From contig OZ244937.1 in NCBI GenBank assembly GCA_965222075.1, positions 1,856,001-1,920,000 on the forward strand: 64,000 nucleotides of DNA, given 5' to 3'. The notes under the pieces are model-generated. The model worked only from the letters and a program-made list of their open reading frames with translations, was not told the DNA's origin and made no database searches. Positions within the stretch are counted from its first letter, which is position 1. Each line of letters starts with the position of its first letter. Shown here in pieces: positions 1,823 to 50,308 of this stretch. The position numbers were made by a program, and so were the translations under genes. The stretch is from Candidatus Latescibacterota bacterium (GTDB taxonomy: Bacteria > Latescibacterota > UBA2968 > GCA-2709665).

Positions 1823-2037
1823 TGGCGCGTGTATCTTTCACCGAATCCACCGTCCAACAGGTCGGAGCCGAGCCTGAGCAGGCGCGTATTTCGTGACGAT
1901 GGTCGTCCAGGGCCGGCCGTGCCTATTTGGCGCGCCGGGTGTGGGAGGCGTTGCCCCACCGGTTTTCAGGTGTTGAGATGGGTCCGTTTGTGGTCATGCC
2001 AAACCATATTCACACGATCATCATCCTGCACGGAACC

Positions 2038-3231
2038 GTAGGGGCGTCCCTTGTGGGCGCCCAATCCACGCACAACAGGGCAATCACAAGGGTTGCCCCT
2101 ACATTGGACGATGTGATCGGACCGGAATGGGACCGGGGTCGAGAATAGTACGATGCGGTGGAATACGGTTACGACAAACCAAATCCCGTCCGCATACACC
2201 ACCTGTAGCGCCCCTGGTGGGCGCCCGACCCACACCCAACAGGGCAACCACAAGGGTTGCCCCTACAAGAACCCTCATGTCCCCTGCCGGGGGTGACGTG
2301 TGCCATTCCAGGAGAACGCCCCATTGAAACACCGCTACAACCCGGACCACCATCACCGCAGGTCCATCCGACTGCGGGGATACGACTACACACAGGCGGG
2401 CGCGTATTTCGTGACGATGGTCGTCCAGGGCCGGTTGTGCCTGTTCGGCGATGTGATCGGCGCAGAGATGCGTTTGAATGAGGCTGGGGAAATGGCGCAC
2501 CGGGTGTGGGAGGCGTTGCCCCATCGGTTTCCAGGCGTTGAGATGGGGCCTTGTGTGGTCATGCCAAACCATATTCACGCGATCATCGTCCTGCACGGAA
2601 CCGTAGGGGCGTCCCTTGTGGGCGCCGACCCACGTACAACAGGGCAATCACAAGGGTTGCCCCTACATTGGACGATGTGATCGGACCGGAATGGGACCGG
2701 GGTCGAGAATAGTACGATGCGGTGGAATACGGTTACGACAAACCAAATCCCGTCCGCATACACCACCTGTAGCGCCCCTGGTGGGCGCCCGACCCACACC
2801 CAACAGGGCAACCACAAGGGTTGCCCCTACAAGAACCCTCATGTCCCCTGCCGGGGGTGACGTGTGCCATTCCAGGAGAACGCCCCATTGAAACACCGCT
2901 ACAACCCGGACCACCATCACCGCAGGTCCATCCGACTGCGGGGATACGACTACACACAGGCGGGCGCGTATTTCGTGACGATGGTCGTCCAGGGCCGGTT
3001 GTGCCTGTTCGGCGATGTGATCGGCGCAGAGATGCGTTTGAATGAGGCTGGGGAAATGGCGCGCCGGGTGTGGGAGACGTTGCCCCATCGGTTTCCAGGC
3101 GTTGAGATGGGGCCTTGTGTGGTCATGCCAAACCATATTCACGCGATCACCGTCCTGCACGGAACCGTAGGGGCGCCCCTTGTGGGCGCCCAATCCACGC
3201 CCAACAGGGCAACCACAAGGGTTGCCCCTAC
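2038..3231. repeat. Five GTAG-type REP doublets (REPIN-like): 2038-2102, 2205-2266, 2603-2666, 2769-2830, 3167-3231
   Basis: Each is an inverted pair of hairpins, GTAGGGGCG(T/C)CCCTTGTGGGCGCCC ... GGGCAA(C/T)CACAAGGGTTGCCCCTAC. The copies at 2205 and 2769 have a shortened left arm. Confidence 0.88.
2300..2680 (+). pseudogene. Truncated RAYT copy
   Basis: Near-identical to 2864.. through MPNHIH, then shifts frame within the REP doublet and stops. It lacks WQRNYYEH and YILDNP. Confidence 0.85.
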
Positions 3232-3472
3232 ATTGGGCGATGTGATCGGTGCGTACAAATCGTTGACCACGGTGGAATATGTGGGAGGCGCCCAGGCCAG
3301 GGGGTGGACACGGTTTCGGGACCGGCTGTGGCAGCGGAACTACTACGAACACATTGTGAGGGACGACGAGTCCCTTGGGAGAATCGAAGGATATATTCTC
3401 GACAACCCGGCAAATTGGTCACTCGACGAAGAGAATCCCCTGAACGTGTCGACGGTATCGGAACCCCTATGA
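2864..3472 (+). CDS. REP-associated tyrosine transposase (RAYT, Y1/HUH family)
   Basis: [18 protein letters not shown] motif [17 protein letters not shown] and catalytic YILDNP. Flanked by GTAG REPs. Confidence 0.9.
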
Positions 3473-6400
3473 CCACCATCACCGAAGCCGACGTTGAAGT
3501 CGCCGCCCTGGACTGGCTGGCGGGCCTCGGTTGGCAGGTCGCGCACGGGCCGGACATCGCGCCGGATACACCGAACGCCGAACGAGGCGACTACGGGCAG
3601 GTCGTGCTGGAACCGCGCCTGCGGGATTCCCTTGCCGAACTGAACCCCGCCCTGCCCCCCGACGCCCTTGACGACGCCTACCGCAGGCTGACCCGCCCCG
3701 AAGGCTCGACCCTGGAGGCACGCAACCGCGCCTTCCACCGGATGCTCGTCGACGGTGGGACAGTGGGATACCGGGGCGACGATGGCGCCGTCCGCTGGGA
3801 ACAGGCAAAGGTCATCGACTTCGACAACCCTGGCAACAACGACTGGCTGGCCGTCAACCAGTTCACCGTCACGGAGAATAAGAACACGCGCAGGCCCGAC
3901 GTGGTGCTGTTCGTCAACGGCCTGCCCCTGTGCGTGATCGAGTTGAAGAACCCGGCGGACGAGGACGCCACCATCTGGACGGCATGGCACCAGCTCCAGA
4001 CCTACAAGGCTGAACTGCCCACCCTCTTCTCCATGAACGAGGCGCTCATGGTCTCGGACGGGACCGAAGCCCGCATAGGCACGCTGACCTCCGGCAGGGA
4101 GTGGTTCAAGCCCTGGCGCACTATTGCGGGGGAGACGCTGGCCGACCGGCTCTTGACCGAGCTTCAGGTAATGCTGGAAGGTGTCTTTGAGCGAAGCCGT
4201 TTCCTCGGGCTCGTCCGCGACTTCATCGTTTTCGATGACGACGGCAGCGGCGCGCTGGAGAAAAAGATGGCGGGCTATCACCAGTTCCACGCGGTCAGGG
4301 TCGCGGTTGACGAAACGCTGCGCGCGGCGGAGTTACAACGATCAGCCGACAGGACCGTTGACACTGGCGGAAGGTACGAGACGGGCCGCAAGCCCGGGGG
4401 TGAGGCCGGCGACCGCCGTATCGGCGTGGTGTGGCACACTCAGGGGTCCGGCAAGAGCCTGACCATGGCCTTCTACGCCGGACGGATCGTTCTCGACCCG
4501 GCCATGGAGAACCCCACCATCGTCGTCCTCACCGACCGCAACGACCTGGACGACCAGCTTTTCGGCACCTTCTCCCGCTGCCAGGATCTGCTGCGCCAGC
4601 CGCCAGCCCAGGCGGAGAGCCGGACCGACCTGAGAAACAAACTCTCGGTGAATGCCGGTGGCGTGGTGTTCACAACGATCCAAAAGTTCTTCCCCGAGGA
4701 GAAGGGCGATACCCACCCAACGCTCTCCCTGCGCCGCAACATCGTGGTCATCGCCGACGAGGCCCACCGCAGCCAGTACGACTTCATCGACGGATTCGCA
4801 CGCCACATGCGAGACGCGTTGCCCAACGCCTCTTTCGTCGGCTTTACCGGTACGCCCATAGAACTTCAGGACGCCAACACGCGGGCCGTGTTCGGGGACT
4901 ACATCAGCATCTACGACATCCAGCGTTCCGTCGAGGACGGGGCCACGGTGCCGATCTACTACGAGAGTCGGCTGGCCAGGCTGACGCTCGATGAGGCCGA
5001 GAGGCCGCTCATTGACCCGGAGTTCGAAGAGGCGACCGAAGGCGAGGAAGTCGAGCGCAAGGAGAAGCTCAAGACCCGCTGGGCACAGCTCGAAGCCATC
5101 GTCGGCGCCGAGAAGCGGCTGAAGCTCGTCGCCGAGGACATCGTCGCCCATTTTGAGCAAAGGCTCGAATCCCTTGATGGCAAGGCGATGGTCGTCTGCA
5201 TGAGCCGACGCATCTGCATCGACCTCTACCACGAACTGGTGAGGCTACGCCCTGATTGGCATCACGAGGATGACGACAAGGGGTACCTCAAAGTCGTGAT
5301 GACCGGTTCGGCCTCCGACCCCGTGGATTGGCAGCCGCACATCCGCAACAAGCCGCGACGGGAGGCGCTGGCCAAGCGGTTCCGCGACCCCGACGATCCC
5401 CTGAGGGTCGTGCTGGTGCGCGACATGTGGCTCACCGGCTTCGACGCGCCCAGCCTGCACACCATGTACGTGGACAAACCGATGCGCGGCCATGGGCTGA
5501 TGCAGGCCATCGCCCGGGTCAACCGCGTGTTCAGGGATAAGCCGGGCGGCCTCGTCGTCGATTACCTGGGACTCGCCCACGAACTCAAGCGCGCATTGGC
5601 GACCTACACCGAAAGCGGCGGCACCGGGCAAACCGCACTCGACCAAAAAGAAGCGGTGGCGGTCATGCTGGAGAAATACGAAATCTGTTGCGGCCTGTTC
5701 CACGGCTTCGACCGGTCCAGGTGGATCACCGGCACACCGGCGGAACGCCTGAGCCTGCTACCGGCCGCGCAGGAACACATCCTGGCGCAAGAGAACGGCA
5801 AGGACCGCTGCGTGCAGGCGGTGCGCGAGCTTTCCCAGGCCTTCGCCCTGGCCGTCCCCCACGAGGACGCGCTGCGCATCCGGGACGACATCGGGTTCTT
5901 TCAAGCGGTTCGAGGGCAGCTGATGAAGCGGGCCGGCGGCGAGGTACGTCCGGAGGAAGAGTTGGACCACGCCGTGCGCCAGATCATCTCCCGCGCAGTG
6001 GCCTCCGAGGGCGTCATCGACATCTTCGCCGCCGCGGGTCTGGAAAAGCCGGACATCTCGGTGTTGTCGGACGAGTTCCTGGCCGAGGTGCGGGGGATGC
6101 CCCAGCGCAACCTCGCAGTCGAGCTGTTACAGAAGCTACTCAAGGGCGAACTCGCCACCCGCCGCCGGAAGAACGTCGTCCAGGCCCGTTCTTTCGCCCA
6201 GATGCTGGAACAGACCCTCCGCCGCTATCAGAACCGCGCCGTCGAAGCCGCGCAGGTGATCGAGGAGCTGATCCAGCTTGCAAAAGACATGCGGGAGGCC
6301 AACGCCCGCGGCGAGACGCTCGGACTCTCGGCGGACGAACTGGCCTTCTACGACGCGTTGGAGACCAACGACAGCGCCGTCCAGGTCCTGGGCGACGAGA

Positions 6401-6609
6401 CCCTGCGCACCATAGCCCGCAAGCTGGTCGAAACCGTCCGCAACAACGTCACCATCGACTGGACCCTGCGCGAGAACATCCGTGCGCAGCTGCGGGTGCT
6501 GGTCAAGCGCACGCTGCGCAAGTATGGCTACCCACCCGACAAGCAGGAAAAGGCAACACAAACCGTCCTGGAGCAAGCCGAGGTCCTATCCGCCGGATGG
6601 GCTGTGTGA
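3469..6609 (+). CDS. hsdR: Type I restriction endonuclease subunit R
   Basis: PDVVLFVNG...IELK nuclease motif, WHTQGSGKS Walker A, DEAH, FTGTP, MWLTGFD and [11 protein letters not shown] 3469 overlaps the RAYT stop. Confidence 0.96.
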
Positions 6610-13410: not shown

Positions 13411-13608
13411 ATGAGCAAGGCAAAACGTGAAAATTCAAAGGTAGCTGAAATCCTGTCAAAGCAACCCGGAAAAGAAGCAGAAATTAACATCCTCGCTGAT
13501 AAAATGGATCTAACCGAATACGAAGCACGGGGATGTATTGACCAGTCCCGATATAAAGGATATAAGATTGAAAACTCTGACAGACGTATGTTCAAATTAG
13601 AAGATTAA
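13411..13608 (+). CDS. Small winged-HTH-like protein
   Basis: RBS AAGGAG; ILADKMDLTEYEARGCIDQSRYKGYKI resembles an HTH. The stop codon overlaps the IS630 target site. Confidence 0.5.
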   Translation: MSKAKRENSKVAEILSKQPGKEAEINILADKMDLTEYEARGCIDQSRYKGYKIENSDRRMFKLED

Positions 13609-13669
13609 GTAGTCGCGCATGAATTTTTTGGTATAATGGGGCTTCGGAAGTCGTATATTAGAGAACCGA

Positions 13670-13694
13670 CCTGCCTGTGCCGAAGGCAGACAGG
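13670..13694. repeat. CCTGCCTG...CAGACAGG mini-palindrome (25 bp)
   Basis: CCTGCCTGTGCCGAAGGCAGACAGG inside the IS630 left end. Confidence 0.85.
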
Positions 13695-13732
13695 TATGAA
13701 AGGGTTCAACACGACGTCAATGGAGGTTCTCT

Positions 13733-14775
13733 ATGAAAGTTGCGACGAAGTTTGTATCCGCCTTAAGTCCAGATCAGATCCAACACCTTGAAGATTTAGC
13801 GGAACGTGATTCGGTCAGGCGAGTTCGAATGCGAGCCCATAGCATTTTACTCAGTTCAAGGGGTTCGAGCATGGATGAGATTGCCAGGATATACCAAGTG
13901 CATCGCGATACGGTTTCTTCCTGGATTGACAATTTTGAGCACCTTGGAGTGGATGGATTGAGAGATAAGCCTCGAAGTGGGGGTCCTCCCAAGTTAAATG
14001 AGCAAGAAAAAGAAGTGGCAAAAGAGCTCCTCAAGACCCATTCCAACGCGCCTTCAATGGTCTTAGCCCTCTTAAGCGAGAAAACGGGAAAAACCATCAG
14101 CCGTTCCAGCTTAAGACGGATTGCGAAAGGGGCAGGCCTGCGTTGGAAACGCGTGAGAAAATCGCTTAAAACCAAACGAGATGATGAGGCGTTTGATCAG
14201 GCGAAAAAAGAGATTGAAGGGTTAAAAAAAACATCAATCCAGAACGCTTGACCTGTATTACTTTGACGAAGCTGGATTTTCTTTGGATCCGAGTATTCCC
14301 TACGCCTGGCAGCCTGTAGGTGAAACCATAGAGGTGCCTGTCGCCAAGAGCAAACGCCTCAATGTTCTGGGATTTCTCAACACAGACAATGACCTCACTC
14401 CTTTCTGCGTGGAGGGCAGCGTTACGAGTGACATTGTGATCGGATGTTTTGATCTTTTTACCTGCCTGTGCGTGCGGGCACGCACGCAGACAGGGCGAGA
14501 CGATCACCAAAAAAACCGTGGTTATTATTGACAATGCGCCCATCCACACAAGTCAGGCGTTTCAGAAAAGGGTGCCCATCTGGAAAAAGAAGGGCTTGGT
14601 CCTCTATTTTTTACCCGGATACGCACCCGAACTCAACCTCATCGAAATCTTGTGGCGTTTTATCAAGTATTGGTGGTTGCCCTTTTCAGCCTACCTAAAT
14701 TTCCGTGCTTTGGTTGAGGCTGTTGAAGATATTCTGGTGAATGTGGGATCGAAATATAAAATCGCTTTCCAGTAA
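13733..14775 (+). pseudogene. IS630 transposase (OrfA/OrfB, -1 frameshift at A8 14224-14231), disrupted by a 34-bp palindrome insertion
   Basis: HTH (RMRAHSILLS, DKPRSGGP), YFDEAGF, IIDNAPIH and PELNLIEILW. The insert at 14461-14494 shifts the frame. Confidence 0.88.
14461..14494. repeat. CCTGCCTG...CAGACAGG mini-palindrome (34 bp)
   Basis: Removing it restores the reading frame DLFSETITKKTVVIIDNA. Confidence 0.9.
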
Positions 14776-14848
14776 ACCATTCAATATGCCACAAAACTCA
14801 TAGACAACTACTTAACTTCCATTTAACCCACAACAACGGAGGCCCAAA

Positions 14849-15076
14849 ATGCCCCGTTTCTTACTCGAAGCCTTCAACGTGGAATTAGACCTTGATCTTG
14901 GAGCTGTCGTTTTATCTCTTCGGGGGTCCGACGAAGTGGACGCATCAGGTACCATCCAGATAGATTTAGATCCACCTCCGCCGAACTCTTACATTTTTCA
15001 GGACTTGGAGGGTGGTAAGAACCTCGCTCGACAACTTCAAGAGGCGATTCAGACTTTAGAGTCTTTAAGTTCGTAG
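14849..15076 (+). CDS. Hypothetical protein (75 aa), IS1595 cargo
   Basis: RBS GGAGG; converges on the transposase stop codon. Confidence 0.55.
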   Translation: MPRFLLEAFNVELDLDLGAVVLSLRGSDEVDASGTIQIDLDPPPPNSYIFQDLEGGKNLARQLQEAIQTLESLSS

Positions 15077-16030
15077 TCATGCAGTCAACTCCTTATATTT
15101 AAGGCGCTTGCCTACCATGTGCTCCGCAACATAAGCCATCTGGTCTATCGTATCCATATTGCGAACGTTGTGCCTGCCCGAAAACTCATTAACATACCGA
15201 CCCAAATGATCAACGCTCATCTTGTGAAACGTCCCATGATAACCACGCTTGAGCATACTCCAAAATGATTCCAAGCCATTCGTATGGGCTTGGCCATCCA
15301 CATACTCGCCTACGGAGTGCTTAACAACCTCGTGTTGAACACCCTCCAAACCCTTGTAAGCCATAGCCTCATCTGTATAAACAGGCGTCCCATCCTTAGC
15401 ATGCGCATAGACAAAAGCCTTTAAGGTCGGGCCGTCTGTGGACTCTACCACCACAGCATCAATACGGTTTGTTATCCGATCTTTAGCGCCCACAACTGCT
15501 GTCTTACCTACCGTACCACGACCCGCGTTCAACTTCTTTTTCGCATGCTTGTTTTTCTCCAGGCCACCAATATAGGTCTCATCCACCTCGATGGGTCCAT
15601 AAAACAAGGACTTTCCTTCCTCCCACGCCTCGCGTATACGATGGGCCATAAACCAAGCGGTCTTTTGTGTGACCTTCAAATCTCTATGGAGCTTCATACT
15701 GGAAACACCCTTCAAACTGGATACATGCAGGTAAATCCCTATTACCCACTTCCTCAACGGTATCTTAGAACGCTCCATTACCGTCCCCGTCCGTACACTA
15801 AAATGACGTCGGCAGTCACCACACCAAAAGGGCATGGGCTTGCCCGAAGAGACAGCATTAACCTTGTCGCAACCTCCGCAACGGGGGCAGCACAAGCCTT
15901 CGCGGTCAGCACCCCACCTGCAATCTTCAAACCACGATACTGCCGACGCCTCATCAGGAAAACGATCATCAAGCAACTCAATAAGGGAGATTCCCTTGCG
16001 ATAATGCTTACCAGGTGCCTTCTGCGGCAT
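15077..16030 (-). CDS. IS1595-family DDE transposase
   Basis: Zn ribbon CPRC..CGDC, SSMKLHRDL..QKTAWFM.HRIR, EVDETYIGG, YTDE, HTNGLESFW and YVNEF. Confidence 0.95.
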   Translation of the reverse strand: MPQKAPGKHYRKGISLIELLDDRFPDEASAVSWFEDCRWGADREGLCCPRCGGCDKVNAVSSGKPMPFWCGDCRRHFSVRTGTVMERSKIPLRKWVIGIYLHVSSLKGVSSMKLHRDLKVTQKTAWFMAHRIREAWEEGKSLFYGPIEVDETYIGGLEKNKHAKKKLNAGRGTVGKTAVVGAKDRITNRIDAVVVESTDGPTLKAFVYAHAKDGTPVYTDEAMAYKGLEGVQHEVVKHSVGEYVDGQAHTNGLESFWSMLKRGYHGTFHKMSVDHLGRYVNEFSGRHNVRNMDTIDQMAYVAEHMVGKRLKYKELTA

Positions 16031-16249
16031 GATAACACCCCTCGACTTTACAGGTTATGTGTTAATAATATCAACAACTTACACCTATAATATAACACAC
16101 TTACCCTGCTTAGTCAAGTATATAATTCCCTTTCATTATTATCTCCGGATACCAGCATCCATACTCTTTGGGCAACATCCGCCACTGGAGTTGCCCCGGT
16201 TCACCGCAGAGACGCGGAGGAACGCATCGTCAAGCTCGTCGGTCTCGAT

Positions 16250-16607
16250 CTTTTACCTCAGAAGCTACTTTGTCAACCACCAGCATATGATGCACTACGA
16301 CATCTACCTCAAAAAAGGCTATCCGACCTGCCTGTGTGTTGCACGCAGACAGGTCTCTACAGGCGTGGTCGAAGGCACCTGCGGCTCGCTGGTCAAAGAC
16401 CGGATGGAGAACAGCGGCATGCGCTGGTCCATCACCGGTGCTCAGGCTGTCTTGGCACAACGTGCGGTCGTGAAAAATGGCGACTGGGGTGACTTCTGGA
16501 ACTACTACATCGACTCCCAAAGAGAGCGGCTCTATCCAACTGTGTACCAGAGAGTCCATCTATACGAAAAAACCGCTTAAACTCGCCCGTAAAATCTTAC
16601 ACACTCA
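16250..16607 (+). pseudogene. ISKra4-family transposase 3' remnant
   Basis: YF.NHQHMMHY..YLKKGYP(I)STGVVEGTCGSLVKDRMENSGMRWS..GAQA.L..R. Confidence 0.8.
16327..16353. repeat. CCTGCCTG...CAGACAGG mini-palindrome (27 bp, in frame)
   Basis: Removing it restores GYPISTGVVEG. Confidence 0.9.
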
Positions 16608-22366: not shown

Positions 22367-22395
22367 CCTGCCGAGCAGAACTCGGCGCAGGCAGG
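22367..22395. repeat. Related CCTGCC...CAGGCAGG palindrome
   Basis: CCTGCCGAGCAGAACTCGGCGCAGGCAGG, intergenic. Confidence 0.65.
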
Positions 22396-49660: not shown

Positions 49661-49895
49661 CCTGTCCCCTTCTCTACGCACCAAATTGACAATCCTGCCC
49701 ATTTCTCCCTCGATCCCGGTTCTCTCCACGCCCCCTCACGCATCTCGCCTCCCGCGCCTCCGGTGCGGGGGGAAGGGGCTTTTCCGCGCAGATCCCTCCA
49801 GCACCACCGCCCAAAAACGCCCAAAAGGTCCGCAGGACAGGAACGCCTGCTTACACCACAGGGGCAGTTCGCGGGCAGCCCAAGCGTCTGAGCGG

Positions 49896-49928
49896 CCTGC
49901 CTGCAGCGCGGTGCGCCGCGCAGGCAGG
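49896..49928. repeat. CCTGCCTG...CAGGCAGG palindrome
   Basis: CCTGCCTGCAGCGCGGTGCGCCGCGCAGGCAGG, intergenic. Confidence 0.75.
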
Positions 49929-50308
49929 CGCCCTTCTTTTTGGGCCTTTTTCTTGGGCGATCAAGAAAAAGGCCTCGCCGAAGGCATGGGGTGTGGAGGG
50001 GTTGTGGATGACGGAGACCGCAAGGTTATTTTCCAGGCAACTTCTAAGACCGAAGCACCGCATGGATCCGTTCGATCAGGGGCACTTCTTCGGGTATTTC
50101 CACAATAACCTGAATAACAGGCCGGTTGCGCCAGAGCCTCAAAACGAGTTCCCAGTCCACATCCAGCCTCTGGCACGCCAGCCGCGCCATCAACAGTGTG
50201 CCTATCAGTATCTTGATCATAACTCCCAAATCATACAAAAAAAGGCCCCTTTGAGTCAAGCCTCTTGAGAAGCGGGCACCGGGAACACCACTCCCGGGTC
50301 CGCAATCC

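Follow-up and report, generated by a model that had tools for sequence, protein, structure and literature searches.

The short palindromes that interrupt insertion sequences (IS) in this stretch of DNA are probably copies of a non-autonomous mobile mini-element that consists of a single hairpin and is moved by an enzyme encoded elsewhere. Members of the family are true insertions: they are placed exactly, without duplication of the target and without loss of target bases. We searched the window, that is, the whole analysed stretch of 64,000 nucleotides, for the pattern CCTGCCTG..CAGRCAGG and obtained four matches of 25, 34, 27, and 33 bp (13670-13694, 14461-14494, 16327-16353, and 49896-49928), against a chance expectation of 0, the mean of 100 dinucleotide-preserving shuffles. 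The search recovered the palindromes that an earlier note had placed at 13670, 14461, and 16327, and each of these three is indeed preceded by an A. Two related copies had also been listed in that note: the one at 49896 matches the full pattern, while the one at 22367 is a variant, equal to the 33-mer with the CCGAGCAGAACTCGG core apart from a missing 5' CCTG unit. The features of the window are the following:

13606 to 14814, + strand: IS630-family element with two hairpins inside, family by Pfam and NCBIfam (NF033545), ends placed where metagenome contigs diverge or stop
13670 to 13694, + strand: 25-bp hairpin in the 5' untranslated part of IS630, exact pattern match, DNA fold -5.2 kcal/mol
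14461 to 14494, + strand: 34-bp hairpin interrupting the IS630 DDE_3 domain and shifting its frame (pattern match, Pfam)
about 15077 to 16030, - strand: IS1595-family transposase gene (PF12762, E = 1.8e-35), between IS630 and the ISKra4 fragment
16191 to 16580, + strand: transposase fragment of the ISKra4 family, C-terminal part only (E = 2.4e-23 to NF033572, positions 340-422 of 422, score below the full-length cut-off)
16327 to 16353, + strand: 27-bp hairpin, in frame in the ISKra4-family fragment (pattern match, NCBIfam)
22367 to 22395, no strand assigned: 29-bp variant with one 5' CCTG unit missing, as read from the sequence
49728 to 49975, + strand: copy of a ~190-250-bp dispersed repeat that is a hairpin target and gives over 50 BLAST hits genome-wide
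49896 to 49928, no strand assigned: 33-bp hairpin of the commonest variant, within this copy of the ~190-bp repeat (pattern match)

An Rfam search with the ~190-bp repeat gave no match.

Extending the pattern search to the whole genome (5.36 Mb), as the earlier note had proposed, took the family far above five copies, to at least 250, of which 233 are innermost and 17 outer copies. They range from 19 to 36 bp and comprise 117 distinct sequences in the genome-wide copy list, the commonest variant being a 33-mer with 22 copies. The architecture is that of a single hairpin: a terminal stem of 8 bp (CCTGCCTG / CAGRCAGG) closes each element, a small bulge on one side makes it asymmetric, and the stem-loop further in varies between copies; in the same list the 3' terminus is invariably CAGG. 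Folding energies lie between -5 and -15.6 kcal/mol for either strand, with an energy per base of -0.346 for the elements versus -0.164 for shuffles. A single preferred folding strand was rejected: of 49 cases, 25 favoured the bottom and 22 the top strand, with stabilities about equal. Most copies stand alone (179 of 233 have no other copy within 150 bp), a dispersal that also led us to reject CRISPR repeats, and none of 30 close pairs was an identical inverted pair. The earlier description of the family as minimal, non-autonomous, and hairpin-shaped is thereby supported.

Filled and empty sites can be compared at several loci. The 34-mer in IS630 separates DDE_3 model positions 15-68 from positions 79-142, and an allele lacking exactly these 34 bases (joint 14460->14495) occurs in 4 of 4 public runs, whose data are contigs, in which rare excision products are invisible and uncovered parts uninformative. 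An X2 contig crosses this empty joint over 464 nt with 0 other letters, and the empty joints show neither ambiguity nor microhomology ('both' = 0). An IS630 paralogue at 3031648 lacks the 34-mer, and ISKra4 paralogues at 4164256 and 5239418 both lack the 27 bp. As the earlier note had claimed, one of these two inserts shifts the frame (the 34-mer) and the other keeps it (the 27-mer), and removing either restores the frame; paralogues at 74-77% identity carry no insert. An alignment of 29 copies of the ~190-bp repeat contains 10 filled, 16 cleanly empty, and 3 copies that differ at the hairpin site. In all 17 nested cases removal of the inner copy leaves a regular element, and in 10 of the 17 the outer element is letter-identical to a free-standing variant. 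The insert in atpC is absent from 23 of 23 orthologues, and G021 and G009 provide an orthologous filled/empty pair. Target loci include loops of other hairpins as well as other repeats. IS paralogues, nested copies, the 190-bp repeat, atpC, and the IS630 runs together bear out precise insertion without target-site duplication (TSD) and the existence of empty alleles. Movement itself is unobserved, and the empty IS630 allele may represent the ancestral state. A miniature derivative (MITE) of a DDE transposon was rejected, since no filled/empty pair shows a duplication and no convincing long element shares the ends.

The placement of the copies inside IS, also claimed earlier, holds for the surrounding DNA, which is IS sequence, but the 13670 copy falls outside the coding sequence, with the IS630 left end (~13606) on one side and the ATG (13733) on the other. 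IS630 contigs from each of the three covering runs (X2, X7, and X12) contain this copy, which is therefore carried along by IS630; it is the only one for which the palindrome turned out to be native to other copies of the same IS.

A flank consensus, which the earlier note had suggested deriving, shows how the targets are defined in this genome. Insertion splits an R|Y step, for the most part A|T or G|C, that is located 3' of C-N-S-R on one defined strand. A cytosine at -4 is found at 74 of 99 unique sites versus a background of 28% (p = 1.6e-21), the -1/+1 pair at these sites is A/T in 36 and G/C in 31, and the flanks are otherwise variable except for this C and the R at -1. A universal -4 C rule was rejected, as only 4 of 31 sites conform in G041, 0 of 31 in G151, and 1 of 44 in G019; across phyla the count is 47 of 117. 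Orientation shows a weak bias with respect to replication (68 vs 41).

These data suggest a mechanism in which the element would move as folded single-stranded DNA, the hairpin being cut and rejoined by an enzyme encoded elsewhere. Copies would then persist where they are tolerated, that is, in IS, defence genes, promoter-side spacers, and, if their length is a multiple of three (3n) and they are stop-free, protein loops, and IS elements and viruses may ferry them between genomes.

A different account holds that the hairpin is immobile by itself and spreads passively within larger repeats, IS, and viruses, reaching new sites by templated repair or replication switching. Several observations fit it: the 13670 copy moves with IS630, the 10 filled 190-bp repeats may stem from one insertion, and in other genomes long conserved flanks are common to most copies, which are therefore parts of larger lineage-specific repeats there. 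In this genome, however, 99 of 109 oriented copies have unique flanks, single-copy housekeeping genes carry insertions, and the joints lack microhomology. Moreover, a sequence-specific enzyme is indicated by ends that are fixed over 8 bp and by a target strand that is defined. We consider passive spread unlikely.

The location of the copies bears on the functional reading offered in the earlier note, namely that the family hits AT-rich DNA of recent acquisition, for example IS, and inactivates it. Insertions do recur in IS genes (5 in an ISKra4-family gene, 3 in an IS982 gene, and 3 in each of two copies of a gene for a 229-residue protein), frameshifting copies are mostly found in IS or low-scoring genes, and low-GC flanks (below 50%) are overrepresented 2.4-fold, at 12.0% of elements vs 5.1% of random sites. 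In other phyla, hairpin-bearing open reading frames often belong to restriction-modification, BREX, or IS91 genes. These repeated IS insertions and low-GC flanks uphold part of the claimed preference, but IS specificity does not stand: 94 of 232 insertion blocks (41%) lie in predicted genes, by gene calls made in this analysis, and of 39 hairpin-bearing genes scanned 31 carry Pfam families, mostly of housekeeping or defence functions. The genes include purL, a uvrA-like gene, acrB, atpC, uvrD, bamA, and cas4-cas1, so that the host's own defence genes are also hit, and the reading frame is still open in 65 of 78 hit genes. Median flank GC (0.57) is near that of the genome (0.60). Enrichment in IS is predicted by relaxed selection alone, and the accumulation there fits tolerance equally well as targeting. 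A defence role is thus quite unlikely.

Tolerance of the elements within genes is apparent from their sequences. Stop codons are absent from all six frames in 227 of 250 copies versus 41% of shuffles, and 184 of 233 copies have a length of 3n; the inserts lengthen essential proteins such as the ATP synthase epsilon subunit, PurL, the UvrA-like protein, and AcrB by 6-12 residues. Genic selection as the source of the 3n length was rejected, as the proportions are similar in genes (78 of 94) and between them (105 of 138; Fisher p = 0.25). A role as terminators was likewise rejected, only 1 of 68 oriented intergenic copies lying between convergent genes.

A major question is which enzyme moves the hairpin. 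The leading candidate, which we put forward tentatively, is an HUH Y1 enzyme of the RAYT or IS200-IS605 kind that would act in trans and cut 3' of the flanking tetranucleotide and of the terminal CAGG. The earlier note had suggested an HUH/Y1 mover, and direct support for it did not emerge: no Y1 gene is hairpin-flanked, and RAYT-like clades have their own REPs. Specifically, none of the Y1-like genes in the tblastn list for this genome (G000) is flanked by hairpins, the nearest hairpin to an intact one being 10.2 kb away, and no hairpins flank the RAYT-like loci of other phyla. This genome has RAYT-like proteins encoded at window positions 2864-3472 and at genome positions 3242104-3242871. 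In relatives, 15 RAYT-like genes were inspected, and their loci yielded a single chance hairpin insertion; one chance insertion sits 3' of a RAYT stop codon. A cognate RAYT was rejected, as the four RAYT-like clades examined each have their own GTAG/GTGG-type REP, and these motifs are a property of four other REP types adjoining RAYT genes. Canonical Y1 (PF01797) was rejected as the driver, since its gene profile is uncorrelated with hairpin number: G004 and G038 have 32 and 75 PF01797 matches with 0-2 hairpins, and G019 has 0 matches with 76-90 hairpins. In the phylum sample, RAYT-like genes (E <= 1e-40) were present in 12 of 13 hairpin-rich versus 10 of 127 hairpin-poor genomes, an association that is confounded by descent because 12 of the 12 positive genomes come from one family. 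Inside this family, copy number does follow RAYT-like genes. No high-scoring RAYT-like gene was found in G024 (which holds 67 copies), G147, or G150. The ends of the IS200 copies of this genome are unrelated to the hairpins. A small GIY-YIG nuclease was rejected, the sole match in G000 being in a 629-residue frame taken as uvrC. Among 32 candidate end pairs none convincingly delimits a long autonomous element with the same ends, and the 118 loci of other phyla share no recurrent neighbour gene, the largest protein cluster covering 6 loci.

It is conceivable, though doubtful, that a hairpin of 19-36 bases is a complete 'nano-transposon', carrying only its own recognition structure, harmless to coding by being 3n and stop-free, crossing phyla via IS and viruses, and relying on an unlinked host enzyme, possibly a type IA topoisomerase. 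If so, it would be the smallest self-propagating DNA known and would need no transposase of its own.

That the mover is a universal housekeeping enzyme, concretely a type IA topoisomerase, whose cleavage site in single-stranded DNA lies four bases 3' of a cytosine, is very unlikely. A single topoisomerase is not known to exchange ends between two cuts. A universal enzyme also leaves unexplained why copy number varies from 0 to more than 200 inside one genus, and the -4 cytosine is not general, as the counts across phyla and in G041, G151, and G019 given above demonstrate. In its favour, both top-strand junctions in this genome have a C at -4 (C-N-S-R| on the left, CAGG| on the right), no gene is linked to the element across the 118 loci, and the element sequence is identical in many phyla. 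Bacterial and archaeal topoisomerase I are described as choosing a cytosine that precedes the cut by 4 nt (PMC3467081). That the hairpins are an artefact of assembly or sequencing has a negligible probability: nothing supports it, the same copies were recovered both in a single-contig genome and in contigs that four studies obtained from independent runs, orthologous genes show conserved flanks, and hundreds of unrelated assemblies contain the element.

We compared the family, read as a mobile hairpin served by an enzyme encoded elsewhere, with known systems. Yeast mitochondrial GC clusters are likewise small palindromes rich in GC, inserted into DNA that is richer in AT and in some cases in frame, but are organelle-specific. 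The small dispersed repeats (SDR, families SDR1-8) of Nostocaceae, 'very small mobile repeated elements' (Elhai et al. 2008, Genome Res 18:1484), are reported to be 21-27 nt long, nested in other repeats, and precisely inserted by a mechanism not known, and so resemble our elements in tiny size, nesting, and precision; the present family probably differs in sequence, and it occurs in many phyla. SDR are stated to be absent outside Nostocaceae (PMC5861425). Rickettsia palindromic elements (RPE), according to PMC10969869, lie in frame in unrelated metabolic genes and are translated as an extra peptide. Palindromic, in-frame occurrence in unrelated genes is common to both, but RPE occur in Rickettsia alone, are ~150 bp long, and code for a conserved peptide, unlike the cross-phylum elements of 19-36 bp. 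The peel-and-paste transposition of IS200/IS605 involves no TSD, insertion 3' of a short one-strand motif, and hairpin recognition (PMC5027513, PMC3201880). Ours likewise lack a TSD and may resemble these elements and their gene-less derivatives (PATE) in hairpin recognition and in a one-strand flank motif, which here is a degenerate C-N-S-R in G000 and different in other genomes. Theirs, however, have two distinct subterminal hairpins plus guide sequences and measure at least ~100 bp, whereas ours have one hairpin.

REP/REPIN-RAYT systems offer further likenesses: like our hairpins, REPs are imperfect palindromes, short and rich in GC, that number in the hundreds and insert beside or into one another; in both cases the substrate could plausibly be a single-strand hairpin, and the hairpin-rich genomes of this family have RAYT-like genes. 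Our hairpins differ in lacking a flanking cognate RAYT and a GTAG-type 5' tetranucleotide, in being single rather than inverted doublets, and in lying inside genes in 41% of cases rather than being extragenic. REPs are also described as lineage-specific and located beside their own RAYT (PMC3116915), whereas these hairpins are identical across phyla.

Among 41 relatives the number of copies per strand ranges from 0 to ~233, and expansions are also seen in other phyla; those that arose independently are in the f1 clade, G024, G041, and G147-G151. Many phyla contain the exact 27-mer, as do 15 viral contigs. Searches of the full-text literature by motif and by concept found no published description of the hairpin family. 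The elements would rank among the smallest mobile DNAs known, and their existence raises the question of which enzyme cuts and pastes a bare hairpin and how its sequence passes from one phylum to another. The elements disrupt IS and defence genes, can mislead annotation through false frameshifts and 'novel loops', and could serve as strain markers. They also act as repeat nodes that break metagenome assemblies, and contigs in the public runs indeed end at hairpins.

Searching the window for the end pattern CCTGCCTG-N(5-30)-CAGRCAGG returned four exact matches, where 100 dinucleotide-preserving shuffles returned none, and a further copy departs from the pattern by one unit:

13670-13694, hairpin, outside any protein, 5' of the IS630 start codon
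14461-14494, hairpin, within the DDE_3 domain of the IS630-family element
16327-16353, hairpin
22367-22395, hairpin variant with one CCTG unit missing
49896-49928, hairpin

The palindromes reported in the earlier note are thereby confirmed, and the IS setting that it gave to three of them is borne out, our gene identities agreeing with its own. The IS630-family element near 14461 encodes HTH domains and a DDE_3 domain, and the 34-mer splits the latter between model positions 68 and 79. On the opposite strand lies an IS1595 transposase, and an ISKra4-family transposase is represented in the window by its final 83 model positions only. The 25-mer at 13670 belongs to an IS630 whose k-mer depth far exceeds that of the surrounding chromosome. 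Three IS families are piled up at 13606-16580 (IS630, the IS1595-family gene on the other strand and the last quarter of the ISKra4-family gene), in DNA that is AT-richer than the genome throughout.

The hairpins are insertions exact to the base, and six independent lines concur on this. In contigs of four public metagenome runs from four studies, 14460 is joined straight to 14495 with exactly 34 bases absent; the joint is free of ambiguity, and the contig from one of these runs (X2) is identical across 464 flanking bases. Paralogues of the IS630 and ISKra4 genes in the same genome (74-77% identity) are without the 34-mer and the 27-mer. Among 29 aligned copies of a dispersed repeat of ~190 bp, a 33-mer occupies one site in 10, the site is cleanly empty in 16 and it differs in 3 (agcgg[33]cgccc when filled, agcggcgccc when empty), and further copies bear hairpins at different sites. 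Hairpins are nested within hairpins at 17 places, and removal of the inner copy leaves a regular element in 17/17, letter-identical to a free-standing variant in 10 of them. A 33-bp copy in the ATP synthase epsilon gene reads as 11 residues; a search of 25 related genomes found 23 orthologues, every one of them 33-45 bases shorter, with the gap exactly at the hairpin in the five that are correctly aligned at the DNA level. Finally, a hairpin lies 3' of a RAYT stop codon in the related genome G021, and the same place is empty in G009. No duplication or loss of target bases was seen at any hairpin site compared. Run contigs, paralogues, the ~190-bp repeat, nesting and orthologues together uphold the proposal of precise insertion without target-site duplication and with empty alleles.

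The dispersed repeat itself (~190-250 bp) has well-conserved ends and occupies window 49728-49975 and at least 28 further sites of the genome, in which it has more than 50 BLAST hits. It matches nothing in Rfam, shows no obvious ORF and is a frequent landing site for hairpins.

In the whole genome under study (G000), the strict pattern identified 233 innermost copies, and removal of inner copies brought out a further 17 outer ones. Lengths peak at 33 (93 copies), 27 (50), 30 (19), 25 (17), 36 (13) and 19 (8), and 184 of the 233 have a length divisible by three. Of 117 distinct sequences, the commonest is present 22 times. As DNA, both strands fold at -5 to -15.6 kcal/mol, per base about twice the stability of shuffled sequence, into a terminal stem of 7-8 pairs, a bulge of two or three bases, an inner stem and a loop. 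Copies are clustered (67 neighbour gaps below 2 kb vs 19 expected), 179 of the 233 have no other close by, and inverted doublets are not formed, identical inverted pairs numbering 0 among 30 close pairs. Stop codons are absent from all six frames in 227 of 250 copies, compared with 41% of shuffled copies.

Element ends vary by whole units, the 5' end carrying one to three CCTG units and the 3' end repeated CGCAGACAGG blocks, at the following loci:

L078, 528-574, end-unit variation
L032, end-unit variation
L047, end-unit variation
Genome 319970, end-unit variation
Genome 1230585, end-unit variation
Genome 3119316, end-unit variation

Some copies are also inserted into their own loop. Such end variation and self-insertion resemble the outcome of slippage or of abortive events at the element ends.

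About half of the copies have unequal ends (CCTGCCTG...CAGACAGG) and can therefore be oriented. In the 99 oriented copies with unique flanks, base -4 is C in 74 (background at R-Y steps 28%; p = 1.6e-21), a purine at -1 is followed by a pyrimidine at +1 in 84, and the two are complementary in 67 (A then T 36, G then C 31). No signal of the -4 type was found at the mirror position downstream of the hairpins, and therefore one strand is read. Filled and empty pairs show that the signal bases are the target's, not the element's. Where the target is another hairpin, the insertion point lies in the loop or beside it.

Our own simple gene caller predicts 4016 genes, which together cover 86% of the genome. 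Of the 232 insertion blocks, 94 fall inside these genes, so that genes are under-hit. The reading frame is open despite the hairpins in 65 of the 78 genes concerned, and Pfam families were matched by 31 of the 39 hairpin-bearing genes scanned, including FGAM synthase, AcrB, UvrD, BamA, ATP synthase epsilon, HsdR, HsdS, xanthine dehydrogenase large subunit, hydantoinase, two TPP enzymes and sigma-54 activators. A double UvrA-like protein has two insertions, and a Cas4-Cas1 fusion gene (locus L179, genome 2496660-2498483) has an in-frame hairpin of 30 bp close to its N-terminus. Frameshifting hairpins lie mainly in IS genes, low-scoring genes and gene ends. Repeated hits were found in an ISKra4-family gene (5), its twin (2), an IS982 gene (3) and each of two copies of an unannotated 229-aa gene (3). 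The bias toward multiples of three is equally strong within and between genes (Fisher p = 0.25) and is therefore a property of the family, not only of survivors. Oriented intergenic copies lie between divergent (30), tandem (37) and convergent (1) gene pairs. Flanks are slightly AT-richer than average, those below 50% GC being enriched 2.4-fold.

Among 41 related genomes, hairpin counts per strand range from 0 to 233, both extremes falling within one genus; in a phylum sample of 140 genomes, only 13 have at least 16 copies, 12 of them in one family. A search with the exact 27-mer (free two-base loop, one genome per species) gave at least 118 stretches. By title, the matches listed belong to many phyla: Thermodesulfobacteriota, Nitrospirota, Verrucomicrobiota, Kiritimatiellia, Planctomycetota, Bacillota, Chloroflexota, Acidobacteriota, Pseudomonadota and others, with local GC of 0.31-0.72, and include one short contig of a Methanosarcinales MAG, a hit to be read cautiously since short contigs may be misplaced in binning. 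A single copy is present in some of these genomes (a Gallionellaceae, a Mariprofundaceae and a Nitrospira MAG), and 30-140 copies are present in others. In the multi-copy genomes of other phyla long conserved flanks are common to most copies, and these copies belong to larger lineage-specific repeats. Hairpin-bearing ORFs in other phyla encode IS91 transposase, PglZ, two HsdM, HsdR, and DUF499 and DUF1156 proteins, as well as housekeeping products, and the exact 27-mer occurs on fifteen viral contigs. Carriage between genomes by IS elements, defence islands and viruses is therefore plausible.

The earlier note suggested an HUH/Y1 enzyme as a possible mover of the hairpin. The Y1-like genes of G000 are one intact and one broken IS200 and RAYT-like genes of two kinds, all retaining the HUH histidines and catalytic tyrosine:

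Window 2864-3472, RAYT-like gene of the first kind, truncated tandem copies alongside
Genome 3242104, RAYT-like gene of the second kind

None has a hairpin nearby except the broken IS200, which simply received an insertion, and in G000 and its relatives each RAYT-like clade has on its flanks a classical REP of its own, with GTAG or GTGG at the foot. The earlier interpretation is partly supported: it stands for the precise hairpin element, and its HUH/Y1 mover finds no direct support. PF01797 counts do not correspond to hairpin counts among genomes. Matches to a profile made from the RAYT-like proteins do track the hairpins (E <= 1e-40 in 12 of 13 hairpin-rich vs 10 of 127 other genomes), a link that descent may explain because all 12 positive genomes share one family; a RAYT-like gene at that level is absent from the hairpin-rich genomes G024, G147 and G150. 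In other phyla RAYT-like domains sit within HsdR or DUF1156 reading frames, with no hairpins near them. No gene recurs beside the hairpin at the other-phylum loci among the matches listed, and no long element with the same ends was found. A Y1 enzyme acting in trans is our best single guess, and a tentative one.

The universal topoisomerase I is a far less likely mover. A passage in PMC3467081 gives a C four bases before the cut as the site rule of the bacterial and archaeal enzymes, and in G000 a C stands four bases before both top-strand junctions; a universal enzyme would also account for the absent linked gene and the cross-phylum spread. However, it would leave the bursts of hairpins unexplained, and in three of the five other genomes tested the rule does not hold. 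A small GIY-YIG nuclease, also considered, is not present in G000.

At window 1900-3472, the RAYT-like Y1 gene, of 202 aa and with its HUH and Tyr motifs retained, lies immediately upstream of the type I restriction gene hsdR (3115-6609), which it overlaps. Two truncated tandem RAYT copies precede the Y1 gene, with GTAGGGGC-type REPs inside and between the copies; G000 has 218 GTAGGGGC motifs. RAYT-like domains also lie in frame inside very long HsdR/DUF1156 methylase frames at four loci of other phyla (L223, L224, L225 and L228) and in the related genomes G002, G003, G020 and G021, that of L225 being bracketed by peptide repeats, GGLENPPSV, resembling translated REPs. Whole REP-RAYT units appear to have entered restriction-modification genes, leaving the frame open.

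We conclude that the hairpin is a real, very small, precisely inserting and widely distributed element. It resembles REPs in shape and copy number, shares in-frame entry into genes with Rickettsia palindromic elements (PMC10969869) and, like IS200/IS605, lacks target duplication (PMC5027513, PMC3201880), yet the defining tests of each of these groups place it outside. Searches of the full text of papers, by end motifs and by concept, found no account of the family. The nearest known description is that of the Nostocaceae SDR, reported by Elhai et al. in 2008 as 'very small mobile repeated elements'. A later paper states that SDR is found in no cyanobacterium outside Nostocaceae (PMC5861425). 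We would place the family among the miniature repeats of REP/SDR type, as a new form.

Metagenome contigs from four runs break or branch at the hairpins in bins 14470-14576 and 16289-16395, where k-mer depth is 10-80 times that of the flanks. The hairpin is a repeat node that fragments metagenome assemblies.
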